From: Actinomycetota bacterium
GTDB lineage: Bacteria; Actinomycetota; Humimicrobiia; Humimicrobiales; Humimicrobiaceae
Assembly (NCBI GenBank): GCA_034660395.1
Contig: JAYEJA010000054.1
Coordinates: forward strand, 1 to 62,779
DNA length: 62,779 bases
Direction of reading: 5' to 3'
The notes under the pieces are model-generated. The model was given only the letters and a program-made list of their open reading frames with translations, was not told the origin of the DNA and made no database searches. The translations under genes were made by a program, and so were the position numbers. Positions within the stretch are counted from its first letter, which is position 1. Each line of letters opens with the position of its first letter. Of this stretch, positions 2,471 through 54,538 are shown in pieces.

Positions 2471-4900
2471 ATGAAGTTCAAACAAAAAAATAATGAAAAA
2501 CAACTGCGTCATCGGCTGGGTATTCCGGACGATGCTAAGCAGGTTTTGGTTTTTTCCGAATCGAGTCACTGGGATCCTAATTGGCTTCTTAAGTCCGAAG
2601 AATATTTTGAGCGATTTGTTCGGCATAACCTCAATTTCGCTATAGAAGAATTAATAAAGGAACCAAAGCGTATTTATTCAATTGAGTGCATATTCTTTTT
2701 GCGATTGTATTGGGAGCGTTATCCTAAAAAGCAAGAAATTGTTCGTGAATTAGTCAACAGCAAACGGTTGCGTTTAACCAGCAGTGGTGTTACAACTGCA
2801 GATACAATATTACCTAACACAGAAGCAATACTGCGCGACCTTGTCATCGGTCAGGAGTGGTTGCGTGAAAACGGGATGACACAAGAAACAAATCTTGCTT
2901 ATTTTGCAGATAGCTTCGGGTGCACACCGGCACTTCCGTCTCTCATAAAAGCAGCAGGATTTGAATGCGCTGCTATAACCCGTGTCGATGGGATGTATTT
3001 TATGGGTTGCGATTTGGAACCTAAAAAACGATTTCCAAGACAAAATTCTACAGCTGAACAACTGTTAATAAAAGAGCGTAGTCTAGATTTTGTTTGGCGT
3101 GATATGAATGGTGCACAAGTATTGTGCCACTGGAATGCTTTCACTTATGGGCAAGGTGATATGCTAGCCTATAGAGGGGCGAGCCGCGTATATCTTTTTC
3201 GTGTTGCATTTTCTGTACGATCAGATCACCATATAGCATATCGTATCAAACAATATGTCAAGAAGCTTTCAAATTACAGTAGAACGCCATATATGCTCTG
3301 TCCCATCGGTTTTGATTTTGTGGAGCCAATTCCCGATCTTGTAGCACTACTTGATAGATATAATCAAAACCATTATCCGAAAACAGGAGTTTGGGCAATT
3401 AATGCCGGCATGGACGATTATCTTGCGCTTGTCGGTTATCACGAAGGCAAGCTGCCCGTGTTACAACTTGATCCAAATCCTTATTGAACCGGTTTTTATA
3501 CGGCTCGTCCGGTTCTTAAGCGGCAATGCCGCAAACTTATCGACAACCTGCTGCTGGCTGAAAAGTTGTCGTTTTTACCTGACAACGATGCTACGAATAA
3601 GACCATCTCTTCTAAGCTTAAAGATGCGTGGTGGCAGGCGGCTGTTTCAAATCATCATGATTTTATCGCAGGTACGTCTCCGGATAGGGTGGTTGAAGAA
3701 GAACAAATGCCTATGCTTGCACAGGCTGCCGATTCGGTAGAATTGATTATAGATCGCTGCAAATATGATTCAACTGAAACTGATGTGCAAAAAAGCAGTT
3801 CTGAATCTTTGGTGTGGACTCAGAAAAATGGCATAATTCAAATAAAGACCATGCACTATGATATAAAGCTGGATAAAAATCGCGGAGGAACAATTATTCA
3901 TTTTAAATCTCACGGCTCAAAAACGCAGTGCAATACAGATATCTCTGCCGAGCTTGTCAGCTATCGTGATTCGGGAGGGCTGTGGCGCATGGGGTTTGAG
4001 TTTGCCGGAGGAATCTGGAAAGAATCCATGAAAGCAAGTATTTATTCGGAGAATACGCAAATAAAAGAACATGGTAACGGCTTGGAGATTATCGGCACCG
4101 CAAAACTAAATGGAGAAGCGATTGTTCATCGAATGTGGTTTGTTAATGATTCGCCTGTTATTTATTGCCGCAGCGAAGGAATGGCTGCAAAAAAGCATTC
4201 TGTTACCGTCCGTTTTAAAACCAGTATATTCGCAAATAGCCTGGCAATGGATTCACCCGGCGGCGTTGTCGTTCGTCCGCTAAAACGTATATACAACCCA
4301 ACCTTTTGGCCGTATCAGAGTTTTGTTCACCTACAGGATGATAGCACTGAGCACGGCATTGCATTTCTTGCGCCTTTACCGGGGGCGATTTCTTATCAAC
4401 CGGACGGGCAAATTGAGCTGGTTGCCATGCGTAATGCTACAAAAGAGAAAATATTTGGTTTTATTGCTATTCCCGGCAATCCCGCATATGGTCACGAGCG
4501 AGAGAGTTATACTTTTGAGTATGCATTTTTGTTTACTCAAAAAGGTGATTGGCGAGATAATAAAATCCATCTAAAAGCACACAGCATTGGCACAAATCCA
4601 TGGTCATCTTCAATAGATACATGTATGAGTAAACTTGCAGACTCTATTGTCACAACCAACACCCACGATGTTTGGGTGGCAGCGGTCAAGCCCACCTCCC
4701 GTGGCAAAGGAATTATAGTTCGATTGAATGCATATAGCTTATCTAGATCAAGAGTGCAGGTTGTGGCTCATCATTTCATGGTAAAAAAAGCTTTTCTGTG
4801 TGATGCGCGAGAACGTGATATTAAATCTCTCGAAGTAATCAACGGCAATGTGCAATTTGAAATGCTTGGTACGGTTACTACGATTAGATTGATGTTATAA
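2471..4900 (+). pseudogene. GH38 alpha-mannosidase-like glycoside hydrolase with one in-frame TGA (3485-3487)
   Basis: SD AAGGAG then ATG2471; SHWDPNW metal motif, ADSFG nucleophile motif, HHDFIAGT. PY*TGFYTARP matches the GH38 YWTG..TSRP motif, and ORFs 2414-3487 and 3566-4900 are in the same frame. Confidence 0.85.
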
Positions 4901-5046
4901 TGAATAATAATAGAGCTTTTTTTGTGATATAGTTCCGATTTCGTTAACTATCCCCTTTTATGTGCGATATAGTACATATTATGGCGATAATGGGAATTAT
5001 TAACAGAATTTCAATTGATTATATAGACATGACATACATACCGAAT

Positions 5047-5120
5047 TGGCTGGGGAGGGAGGGTTCGAACCTCCGATCACGGGTCCAAGGCCCGTTGCCT
5101 TACCACTTGGCTACTCCCCA
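5047..5120 (-). tRNA. tRNA-Gln(TTG), CCA encoded, atypical C33
   Basis: U1-A72 acceptor TGGGGAG/CTCCCCA, G73; anticodon arm ACGGG-CCTTGGA-CCCGT; T arm GGAGG-TTCGAAC-CCTCC. Lies downstream of ispE. Confidence 0.9.
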
Positions 5121-5214
5121 TTAAAACTAATAAATTCTATAACAGTGCCTGCTAAAATTCAAATTTGAAAGAAGTTATAAATATATGAGGTTATTTCATC
5201 TATCACGATATATA

Positions 5215-52363: not shown

Positions 52364-52620
52364 TTATATATATTTTATCTTATCCAGCCTATATTCCAAC
52401 AAAAAACCAGCTTCCATCCCTATTTCGCCTGCGGTATATACTAATTATATACATAGAGATGCATTTTCATTTTTCTTTGAAATATACATATTTTATCAAG
52501 CTGCCCAGCAATTAATCATCTAAAAATAATTTCCTAAATAATTGCACCATATCGGCCTAAAACGGTCTGCTTTTCAAAAAAGCAAATTCGATTTCGAGCA
52601 TCTTTTGACTTTTACCTCAA

Positions 52621-52649
52621 AATATGATATGTAATATACATATCATATT
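52621..52649. promoter_or_regulatory. Perfect palindrome over the IS internal promoter
   Basis: AATATGATATGTA-ATA-TACATATCATATT, downstream of TTGACT (52605-52610) and just before SD AAGGAG. Confidence 0.7.
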
Positions 52650-52663
52650 GATAAGGAGAGCAA

Positions 52664-53002
52664 ATGAACAGAAACTATATGGAATCCGATCTTAAAAAAA
52701 CAACCTCACATCTTGCTAAACTTGTACATAAGGGAAGCTTCATCAGGGGAAATCCGGTTGTAGTGGAGAGAACTTGTGGGAACAAAAACTGCAGGTGCAT
52801 ACGGGAAGGTAAAAAGCACAGGTCACTATATATATCCAAAAACAAAGACGGCAAAAGAAAGATGATATATGTTCCCAAAAGGATGGAGGATGAAGTAAGG
52901 GCAAAGCTGGATGCATATCAGAGGATAAAAAAGCTTACCGAAAAGATATCGGAGATAAACTACAGGAAACTTCAAATAGATAAAAAACAAAAGCATGTTT
53001 AA
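52664..53002 (+). CDS. DUF6788-like IS accessory protein (Cys/His cluster)
   Basis: FIRGN..V.RTCGNKNCRC..G.KH..LYIS..KDGK.KMIYVP; overlaps the transposase start. Confidence 0.75.
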   Translation: MNRNYMESDLKKTTSHLAKLVHKGSFIRGNPVVVERTCGNKNCRCIREGKKHRSLYISKNKDGKRKMIYVPKRMEDEVRAKLDAYQRIKKLTEKISEINYRKLQIDKKQKHV

Positions 53003-54224
53003 AAAGCTAATACGTTATTCAAATAAGATATTTGATCTATTTACCATAATAGCTTTAATTACCGACAGGCGGATAAGATCGCAGATTCCCACCGTAAAGA
53101 TAATAACTGCTGTAATAATAATGTATTTTACCAACCAGGGTTCGCTACATGGCCTCTCACAGGAGATAGCATACAAGAGGCTTAAAGGTTTTCTTCCATC
53201 TGTATCAACTATTGCAAGGTCTGCTGACAGCATGGACATCGGCTCCATAAGAGAGGTAGGCCAAAGCATATACAAAAAGGCAAGAGCGGCAAAAATGCTT
53301 GCCCCCTGCCATGGGATGTGGGTTGGTGTGGTAGACGACCATGAACAGGCAACCTCTTCCTACTGCAAGTGCAAGTATTGTAAAAGTAGGACTGTTACCA
53401 GAAAAGACGGAGTAAAGGACATACAGTTCTATCACCAGTTTGTAGCATTTATACTGGCAGGACCAAAGGTTAGCTTTATTCTTGATATAGAGCCGGTTCT
53501 TCCGGGAGAAGGAGAGATATCAAGCGCATATAGGCTCATAGAGAGGGTGTGCAGAAACTATCCCAGGGCATTTTCTATTGTAATAGGTGACGGGCTGTAT
53601 CTAAAGGAAACGGTATTTAAACTATTAAAGGCTCACCGTAAATATGCCATTGCCGTCCTAAAGGAAGAAAGAAGGCAGCTCTTTGAGGAAGCAGACAGAC
53701 TCTCGCTTCTATCAGAACCTAAAGTCTACAGGAAAGGCAGGACATATTACAGGGTCTGGGATCACTCCATATCCGGATGCTGGGATGGGTACGGAAGGGG
53801 TGTAAGGGTTATTGTATCAGAGGAGGCAACTCCGGTAAGGGCTCATTCAAAAGACGGGAAAAGTTTTGAAGAAAAAGTGAACAGGGCAAATCGGATGTGG
53901 GTCACAAATCTGCCCCGTTCAGAAGATCCCGGCAGTTTAAAAAATACTGTAAGCATCTGCCACAGCAGGTGGCAGATTGAAAATCAGTGTTTTAACGAGA
54001 CGGTAAATATCTGGAGCGCAGATCATGTATACAGGCATAGTAAAAATGCCATAACAGCATTTCTTCTCTTGCTCTTTATCTGTGTAAATATCGTGGGTAT
54101 CTTCCGCATAAGAAATATTAAAGACAGAAGCATAAAGACAAAGATATACCTGATAAGACTTGTAAGGTCAGGATTTCATACTGCCCGCAAACCACTTCCA
54201 ACAATTCCGCCAATTCCGATATAA
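52995..54224 (+). CDS. DDE transposase (DDE_Tnp_1 / IS4-superfamily-like)
   Basis: VVDDHE, VIGDGLY and SRWQIENQCF (D, D, E); lies inside the TIRs. Confidence 0.88.
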   Translation: MFKKLIRYSNKIFDLFTIIALITDRRIRSQIPTVKIITAVIIMYFTNQGSLHGLSQEIAYKRLKGFLPSVSTIARSADSMDIGSIREVGQSIYKKARAAKMLAPCHGMWVGVVDDHEQATSSYCKCKYCKSRTVTRKDGVKDIQFYHQFVAFILAGPKVSFILDIEPVLPGEGEISSAYRLIERVCRNYPRAFSIVIGDGLYLKETVFKLLKAHRKYAIAVLKEERRQLFEEADRLSLLSEPKVYRKGRTYYRVWDHSISGCWDGYGRGVRVIVSEEATPVRAHSKDGKSFEEKVNRANRMWVTNLPRSEDPGSLKNTVSICHSRWQIENQCFNETVNIWSADHVYRHSKNAITAFLLLLFICVNIVGIFRIRNIKDRSIKTKIYLIRLVRSGFHTARKPLPTIPPIPI

Positions 54225-54538
54225 CACTCCTTTCTTTCTTAGTATTTGATAAATCAACCAGGTAACTTCTTTAATATTATCACAGAAAATGATATTTTAG
54301 GCACCCCAAAACATAAAAATCACCCTAATCTTTATCCCTAAAACTTTCATTTGGAAAATGGTCAAATGGATTTGTATGACAATAACCTTATTTTAGCTGA
54401 TATTTTAGTTGAAATTTGAAGAAGATGATTAATCGCTGCAAGCTGCCTGTATCTCTTGATTGTTAATTCCTTTTTTATTATACTCATACAAATTTATGAT
54501 TTTTCGTTTTTTAGTTATATTTTTCTTAAATAAATACG

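Follow-up and report, generated by a model that had tools for sequence, protein, structure and literature searches.

A two-gene insertion sequence between divergent transcription units

The sequence analysed here (the window) is a stretch of 62,779 nucleotides from contig C54 (JAYEJA010000054.1) of the metagenome-assembled genome (MAG) of an Actinomycetota bacterium of the Humimicrobiaceae, a genome of 1.72 Mb in 168 contigs with 37% GC. It contains a 1933-bp insertion sequence (IS) at positions 52506-54438, whose ends and target duplication can be read directly from the sequence. Two open reading frames (ORFs) make up its coding part, orfA for a small protein of the DUF6788 family and orfB for a transposase with an Asp-Asp-Glu (DDE) catalytic triad. 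They are framed by 16-bp terminal inverted repeats (TIRs) that agree in 15 of 16 positions and by a perfect 9-bp target-site duplication (TSD) (Table 1); further inside, AATTTC occupies positions 23-28 of both ends. A search of the 62.8-kb window with the TIR pattern, allowing up to two mismatches, returned only the two element ends, where 0.08 occurrences are expected by chance. The 9-mer of the TSD occurs three times against an expectation of 0.48, and two of the three occurrences abut the TIRs exactly.

The history of the insertion can be followed in the same MAG and in related genomes. Contig C30 terminates in a stretch of 122 bp that is 100% identical to the start of the element, and the identity sets in exactly at CAGC. 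Since this copy starts at CAGC behind a flank (...TATAATAAT) that differs from the one in the window, the left boundary is independently confirmed and the genome holds at least two copies. Apart from the C30 end, neither further copies nor derivatives of the miniature inverted-repeat transposable element type were found in the MAG. The transposase is encoded in none of 11 genomes of the same genus, and relatives with 40-63% identity, some of them decayed, occur in 7 more distant genomes of the same family or class, a patchy distribution within the taxonomic family. In the congener G009 only a short intergenic region separates the two transcription units that flank the element in the window, and the joined flanks align to it contiguously over 713 columns at 74% identity, which identifies the empty site. 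All generic features of an IS are thus present (TIRs, a TSD, a transposase gene, more than one copy and an empty site in another genome), and 52506-54438 is an intact, recently inserted, bounded and multi-copy IS. The initial annotation, made from the sequence of the window, had proposed a fully bounded element with these TIRs, the shared AATTTC, a perfect TSD and two overlapping ORFs, and had taken the insertion to be recent. Its description of the ends is borne out by the C30 copy and that of the genes by the 8-bp overlap of orfA and orfB, and its dating agrees with the perfect TSD, the empty site in G009 and the absence of the element from all 11 congeners.

Table 1. Features of the insertion sequence and its immediate borders, in window coordinates.
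Feature	Position	Strand	Basis
Left TSD copy, 9 bp, CAAGCTGCC	52497..52505	.	Sequence; orthologous empty site in congener
Left terminal inverted repeat (IRL), CAGCAATTAATCATCT	52506..52521	+	Identity of the C30 copy starts here; conserved in the family
Invariant subterminal block GCAAATTCGATTT, candidate site for transposase or a host factor	52582..52594	+	10-member alignment
Putative orfA-tnp promoter: -35 TTGACT (52605-52610), 17-nt spacer, TG (52625-52626), weak -10 TATGTA (52628-52633)	52605..52633	+	Read from sequence; -35 and TGA conserved
Palindrome with 13-bp arms overlapping the -10, candidate operator	52621..52649	.	Core ATGATA..TATCAT invariant in ten leaders
Shine-Dalgarno sequence AAGGAG of orfA	52653..52658	+	Sequence and alignment
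orfA, 112-aa DUF6788 protein with Cys3-His knuckle (C38, C43, C45, H52)	52664..53002	+	Pfam, alignments, model
orfB, 409-aa DDE transposase	52995..54224	+	Start codon within the final codons of orfA (ATGTTTAA)
Non-coding region at the right end; conserved blocks include TTTTAGGCACCCCAAAA and ATTTGGAAAATG	54225..54422	+	Family alignment
Right terminal inverted repeat (IRR), CAGCGATTAATCATCT	54423..54438	-	Sequence; conserved in family members
Right TSD copy, 9 bp, CAAGCTGCC	54439..54447	.	Sequence; perfect match to left copy

The element lies 142 bp upstream of a DtxR/FeoA-feoB operon on the minus strand (intervening stretch 52364-52505) and 91 bp upstream of a gene for an ATP-binding cassette (ABC) ATPase on the plus strand (54448-54538). 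The predicted core promoters of both neighbours, at 52399-52372 on the minus strand and at 54456-54484 on the plus strand, are outside the insertion. The element thus seems to have landed between two divergent promoters and to have destroyed neither, and the native promoters may survive, now 1.9 kb apart.

A metagenome-abundant clade with a conserved layout

A metagenome protein collection contains about 294 homologues of the transposase and about 170 of OrfA at 60-90% identity, many of them on contigs of roughly 1.9-2 kb, a size typical of repeats that break assemblies. Where the hosts are labelled, they are mostly low-GC MAGs of the designation 'Actinomycetota bacterium', with one Candidatus Humimicrobiaceae. 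Where the proteins are named, they are called 'hypothetical protein' or 'transposase' or, wrongly, 'RPC12/RpoP' or 'Zn-ribbon regulator'. A search against PHROGs gave no match. The clade is abundant in metagenomes and without description in the searchable literature.

Wherever a locus includes upstream DNA, and down to a transposase identity of 45-51%, the DUF6788 gene directly precedes the transposase gene, in a common layout of a putative promoter with a palindrome, orfA and then the DDE transposase gene, which is probably translationally coupled to it. The ends are conserved as CAGCAATTAATCATC over the whole range of identity within the clade. The TSD measures 9 bp in five independent insertions, namely the window copy and those at L011 (GTATGCCTC), L014 (ACCAGTCTA), L015/L016 (ATAGAACTA) and L018 (TCCTCTATG), so that the length read in the window holds for four other family members. 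No target-site consensus emerged from these five duplications and a few single flanks, a sample too small for one. On some other metagenomic contigs the flanks of the element do not match, which is most simply explained by assemblies jumping between copies. Inward of the TIRs, the block GCAAATTCGATTT is invariant in 10 members whose transposases are only 60-84% identical, and the right-side blocks TTTTAGGCACCCCAAAA and ATTTGGAAAATG are likewise invariant across members of this range of identity; the right-end non-coding region has no match in Rfam.

Some loci of the clade show individual peculiarities. At L009 (positions 1-134) the left end of a complete element is separated by exactly 9 bp (TCTTTGTGA) from the preceding right end of a slightly different copy (...GATGATTAATTGCTG), an arrangement that could be a head-to-tail tandem, an insertion beside another copy or the trace of a circle junction. 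L017, L018 and L022 are three metagenomic contigs with identical 1918-bp copies, whose flanks combine two insertion sites reciprocally: TCCTCTATG on the left with ACAAATAAT on the right, the reverse, and TCCTCTATG at either side. Two copies may have recombined, or the assembly is chimeric. The transposase of the L011 copy (3995-5199), which has a perfect 9-bp TSD, is spread over two overlapping frames (residues 1-285 and 279-406), the element being intact in other respects; the cause is a frameshift or an error of sequencing. At L007 (4372-4788) a second DUF6788 gene lies on the same contig about 2.5 kb downstream of the clade element, which suggests that another DUF6788-bearing element adjoins it.

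The transposase is a Tn5-like member of the IS4 superfamily

In Pfam the orfB product matches DDE_Tnp_1 (PF01609) with 26.5 bits, just above the cut-off of 23. The family alignment contains three invariant acidic residues, D114 (in VD-x-HE), D199 (in VIGDGLY) and E329 (in RWQIEN), the first of which was assigned from conservation together with a predicted beta1 strand. The spacers of 84 and 129 residues lie within the D(60-110)D(100-150)E range of IS4 (PMC2266710). An AlphaFold model from a shallow alignment reproduces the RNase H order of secondary structure elements, with a beta-rich insertion between the second Asp and the helix that bears the Glu, at a predicted local distance difference test (pLDDT) value of 51. 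Its only significant neighbour in a Foldseek search of the PDB is Tn5 transposase (4dm0_A, E=1.2e-6, probability 1.00, 410 columns). The model being poor, we used this match only and avoided claims at the level of residues. A search of PDB sequences with the profile of the transposase family returned nothing, not even Tn5.

We compared the transposase with the NCBIfam models, which represent essentially all ISfinder families. None of the IS-family models, including those for ISNCY, reaches its cut-off. The best scores are 17.8 bits for IS1634, 17.1 for IS701 and 16.4 for IS4, against cut-offs of 100, 170 and 115, and all three matches fall on the C-terminal catalytic helix (the C1 region). The picture is the same for 15 family members, where the best E-value against an IS4 model is 6.4e-5. 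In that helix the Y(2)R(3)E(6)K motif of the IS4 family is incomplete. The corresponding residues read C322-x2-R325-x3-E329-x6-T336, with Cys and Thr invariant in the 15 members at the positions of Y and K.

The IS4 family proper comprises IS10, IS50/Tn5, IS231, IS4Sa and ISH8 (De Palmenaer, Siguier and Mahillon 2008; PMC2266710). The element resembles it in the DDE_Tnp_1 domain, the D(84)D(129)E spacing, the sole significant fold match to Tn5, ends that start with CA, the beta-rich insertion between the second Asp and the Glu, and a TSD of about one helical turn, its 9 bp fitting the 7-13 bp of that family (PMC2266710). It differs in that invariant Cys and Thr replace Y and K (C-H-x-R-W-Q-I-E-N...T), in a Cys-rich insert after the first Asp (C124, C126, C129), in having two ORFs where IS4 elements have a single one, and in scoring only about 16 bits against IS4 models (NF033590-92) with cut-offs of 115-152. 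An incomplete YREK motif sets the emerging families apart from IS4 proper (PMC2266710), and the element shares this trait with IS1634, IS701 and ISH3; its best NCBIfam matches, weak as they are, also go to IS1634 and IS701, in the C1 region of these models. It falls outside these families, however, as their TSDs measure 4-6 bp (PMC2266710) against 9 bp here, and as 17.8 and 17.1 bits are far from cut-offs of 100 and 170.

A deeper relative was found among plasmids. Among 72,556 plasmids searched by tblastn there were five weak matches, one of which is annotated as 'ISNCY family transposase' on pNPUN02 of Nostoc punctiforme (WP_234711115.1; 23% identity to the orfB product over 334 aa, pairwise E=6e-12). 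Both transposases contain D-x-x-E...C-x-x-C-x-x-R...(F/Y)H, GD(G/D)LY and SRW(Q/K)IEN, in the Nostoc protein as LDGTE...C-x-x-C-x-x-R...YFH, GDDLY and SRWKIEN, and the two elements have an identical terminal octamer, CAGCAATT. The Nostoc element is 1.64 kb long, with 35-nt TIRs beginning CAGCAATTCTCATCAT and flanks CCCAACTCAG that form a 10-bp TSD in place of the 9 bp seen here. Unlike the window element it is cyanobacterial, has a single ORF and lacks DUF6788, and the divergence between the two is very deep. Its TIR (L095, 1197-1230) contains a perfect palindrome of its own, ATTCTCAT-C-ATGAGAAT, directly after the common CAGCA and internal to the TIR. Since the Nostoc protein stays below the cut-off of every NCBIfam model, its 'ISNCY' label must have been assigned by a BLAST rule that points to an orphan of ISfinder. 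From this label and the common ends, the lineage would reach into the ISfinder bin of elements 'not classified yet', and because the single-ORF relative has the same terminal octamer, the transposase lineage probably already has entries in that bin. By this comparison the two-gene clade would form a separate and deeply diverged branch within that lineage. ISMae2, for whose group ISfinder lists a 9-bp TSD, is a tentative candidate for a named relative; the papers found confirm only that the annotation 'ISNCY-like ISMae2 family transposase' exists.

The transposase is plainly an IS4-superfamily, Tn5-like enzyme and not a new kind of enzyme, and the IS is a variant within that superfamily that seems closest to the ISNCY orphans. 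The suggestion of the initial annotation that the IS is probably of an unclassified type stands as far as NCBIfam reaches (17.8 bits against 100 at best, with Y and K of the C1 motif absent) and fits the 'ISNCY' label of the nearest labelled relative; it is qualified by the plain membership in the IS4 superfamily. There is a modest chance that the element itself is already catalogued in ISfinder, perhaps among the ISNCY orphans, with its small ORF recorded. The clade is abundant in public metagenomes, and the name that the Prokaryotic Genome Annotation Pipeline (PGAP) gives to the Nostoc relative with CAGCAATT ends derives from ISfinder entries. On the other side stand the absence of any NCBIfam model at cut-off, the uninformative or mistaken names of close homologues, such as 'hypothetical protein' or RPC12/RpoP, the lack of a second ORF and of DUF6788 in the labelled relative, and the silence of the searched literature on DUF6788.

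OrfA is a basic protein with an invariant Cys3-His motif

The orfA product matches DUF6788 (PF20586) with 51.8 bits (E=1e-13) against a gathering threshold of 27.2, a family that none of about 8.4 million searched papers mentions. Its residues C38, C43, C45 and H52 (C-x4-C-x-C-x6-H) are invariant within the clade, and over 40 homologues of about 30-45% identity they are, together with G39, the only invariant positions, which points to a zinc knuckle. The protein is very basic (isoelectric point 10.2, net charge +19). In its AlphaFold model (pLDDT 80) an N-terminal helix is followed by a four-stranded sheet with the knuckle and by a C-terminal helix of 39 residues. The top fold matches, to SRP9/14, COMMD-like and double-stranded RNA-binding domains, had probabilities of at most 0.41 and were not used, and no PDB sequence was found with the OrfA profile. 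A profile of the narrow clade collected 860 clusters at 50% identity, 218 of them at E<=1e-10, nearly all of which are stand-alone proteins of 100-125 aa.

Small basic proteins encoded upstream of the catalytic ORF are known from IS1 (InsA) and from the IS3 family (OrfA), and InsA of IS1, a zinc finger protein, binds the promoter of its own element and holds transposition down. The OrfA described here is not known to resemble them in sequence or fold, its transposase is probably translated separately and not as a frameshift fusion, its putative operator is not the inverted repeat but a palindrome located about 115 bp further inside the element, and DUF6788 is common to unrelated transposase families.

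The orfA leader contains a putative promoter overlapped by a conserved palindrome

Alignment of ten leaders of the clade revealed, beside the invariant GCAAATTCGATTT, a conserved -35 hexamer (TTGACT or TTGATT), a TG 17 nt further on and then a weak -10. The candidate operator overlaps this -10, and the four inner pairs of its arms vary between subclades in a way that keeps the symmetry: 92.5% of the cells pair, and 21 cells are changed on both sides as compared to 6.6 in shuffled alignments, a number reached in none of 500 shuffles. All slid registers of the palindrome score far lower. The inner part of the TIR, AATCATC (52514-52520), resembles the half-site TATCAT of the palindrome (52641-52646), and the same protein might read both.

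Between orfA and orfB the stop and start codons overlap in a manner that differs from member to member. The overlap is 8 bp in the window (ATGTTTAA), and across the clade it is 8 bp (RTG TTT AA/TAG), 4 bp (ATGA) or 1 bp (TAATG), with orfB in the +1 frame relative to orfA in some members and in the -1 frame in others, and without conservation of the A-run that precedes the overlap in the window. This variability of overlap and frame, together with the lack of a conserved slippery run, agrees with translational coupling of the two genes on one transcript and speaks against a programmed frameshift fusion.

DUF6788 genes stand beside several other transposase families

Among genomes of the phylum, PF20586 scores above its cut-off in 30 of 301, often in multiple copies and on short contigs; it is found in none of 14 control genomes. 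The neighbours of these genes were named by Pfam and NCBIfam. Eight high-GC loci (L077, L079-L081 and L083-L086), where shadow ORFs left no interpretable neighbour, were left out of the tally. Directly downstream of DUF6788 and in the same orientation we found an IS66 transposase (264 bits), an ISKra4-like transposase truncated by the end of its contig (186 bits), an IS1634 transposase (178 bits) and a 502-aa IS4-like transposase (DDE_Tnp_1, 50 bits). IS1634 at two loci and an ISNCY_1/IS5-like transposase are divergent from DUF6788, and an ISAzo13 transposase is convergent with it. The recurrence of DUF6788-like genes beside transposases, which the initial annotation had given as background, is thereby substantiated for IS1634, IS66, ISKra4, ISAzo13, IS5/ISNCY_1-like and a second IS4-like type.

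At two loci the pair can be placed between repeats. At L087 a DUF6788-transposase pair lies between perfect 15-nt inverted repeats. L091 (2319-4575), in a genome of the same taxonomic family, is a different IS, 2257 bp long, whose TIRs measure 17 nt (CTGCAATTCAGACA...) and whose TSD, ACCTTAATTTA, measures 11 bp; it carries DUF6788 together with the 502-aa IS4-like transposase, which stays below all NCBIfam cut-offs. Upstream palindromes are likewise found outside the clade. At 10 of 20 unrelated DUF6788 loci a palindrome lies within the 160 bp upstream of the gene (p<=0.05 against shuffles), and several of these palindromes have a GTA-N3-4-TAC centre like that of the window element.

Because DUF6788, often with a palindrome of its own, adjoins at least five other transposase families, it would be a portable regulatory cassette and not a part specific to one family. 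Tentatively, and with somewhat more doubt than confidence, we propose that DUF6788 and the palindrome form a portable 'repressor plus operator' cassette, built on a fold without a solved relative, which may have been acquired independently by at least six unrelated DDE lineages; with similar reserve, these would be the Tn5-like clade described here, another IS4-like type, IS1634, IS66, ISKra4 and IS5/ISNCY_1-like elements.

A model for transposition and its control

The explanation that accounts best for these observations, and that we hold to be reasonably probable, is that of a recently moved two-gene IS with Tn5-like cut-and-paste transposition and with OrfA as autorepressor. A transposase dimer would bind the 16-bp CAGCAATTAATCATC ends and excise the element, which would then integrate across a target cut with a 9-bp stagger, by cut-and-paste of the kind known from IS10 and IS50; this route is assumed from the length of the TSD, the DDE spacing and the similarity of the fold to Tn5. 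OrfA and transposase would be made from one transcript by translational coupling. OrfA, as a very basic Cys3-His zinc-knuckle protein that probably dimerises via its long C-terminal helix, would bind the dyad-symmetric site over the -10 of its own promoter and thereby keep expression of orfA-tnp, and hence transposition, low. That OrfA is such a dimeric, zinc-dependent DNA-binding autorepressor we consider about evenly balanced; it is suggested by features of the protein (charge, Cys3-His motif and long helix), by the position of the symmetric site at the promoter, and by the occurrence of gene and palindrome beside unrelated transposases.

Several observations weigh against this explanation. 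The Y and K of YREK contact DNA in Tn5 and are absent here, which makes hairpin cut-and-paste chemistry an extrapolation; the transposase model is of low confidence, as its pLDDT indicates; and the two ends 9 bp apart at L009 are a possible hint of tandem or circular forms. For OrfA, the case for DNA binding is made from its charge, the zinc motif and the genomic context, and a Foldseek search of its model against the PDB gave no significant relative (best E=0.18). The proposed -10 is weak, lacks the final T and was not listed by a consensus promoter scan. An RNA hairpin would explain the palindrome equally well, and so would a binding site of the transposase, since the TIR has ATCAT in common with the half-site. 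Half of the unrelated DUF6788 loci have no significant upstream palindrome, and at some of these loci the DUF6788 gene is merely a neighbour of the transposase gene, divergent from or convergent with it.

OrfA might, by analogy with the second proteins of multi-gene transposons, act as a cofactor of transposition instead of a repressor, in recognising or bending the ends, in assembling the synaptic complex or in choosing the target, a role that we regard as unlikely. It would account for the retention of orfA in every member of the clade and for its coupling to tnp, which would give matched stoichiometry; it would also supply a binder for the conserved subterminal blocks at both ends and fit the ATCAT common to TIR and half-site. 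However, the relatives in Nostoc, which have the same octamer at their ends and a TSD of 10 bp, make do with a single ORF and without DUF6788, and the best-conserved DNA feature near orfA is the palindrome at its own promoter and not at the ends. A generic regulator also fits better with the occurrence of DUF6788, sometimes in divergent orientation, beside the mechanistically different IS66, ISKra4 and IS1634.

We give still less weight to the idea that the palindrome functions independently of OrfA, either as an RNA hairpin that would limit translation of read-through transcripts, as in IS10 and IS50, or as a site for the N-terminal domain of the transposase. The compensatory changes keep the pairing as an RNA or a DNA stem would, the hairpin ends 3-4 nt before the Shine-Dalgarno sequence, and the half-site resembles the inner TIR. 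Yet the conserved -35 and TG put the start of transcription inside or after the stem, so that the element's own transcript would lack the full hairpin, and the stem does not cover the Shine-Dalgarno sequence. Palindromes upstream of DUF6788 genes beside unrelated transposases moreover tie the site to DUF6788.

That OrfA and OrfB are fused as in IS1 and IS3, through a programmed frameshift or through slippage of transcription at the A6 run just before the overlap (52982-52987), is very improbable, and we rejected it: the clade has no conserved slippery run, orfB occupies the +1 frame here and the other frame in L007, L011 and L014, its frame is open for only 15 nt upstream of the start codon, and every member has an orfB start codon of its own at or in the orfA stop.

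Significance

As an IS the element represents ordinary biology, another DDE element recently inserted at a harmless intergenic spot. For classification it joins features that exclude each other in the IS4 scheme, a 9-bp TSD and the DDE spacing on the one hand and an incomplete YREK motif and two ORFs on the other. In practice it offers a cleanly delimited and apparently active reference copy for annotating hundreds of metagenomic contigs. The more interesting part is DUF6788 with its palindrome, which is widespread, unstudied and common to several transposase families. If the proposal of a repressor-operator cassette is true, it would constitute a general, so far undescribed means by which ISs control themselves, and the window element, with one promoter, one palindrome and one small protein, is the simplest setting in which the function of DUF6788 can be studied.

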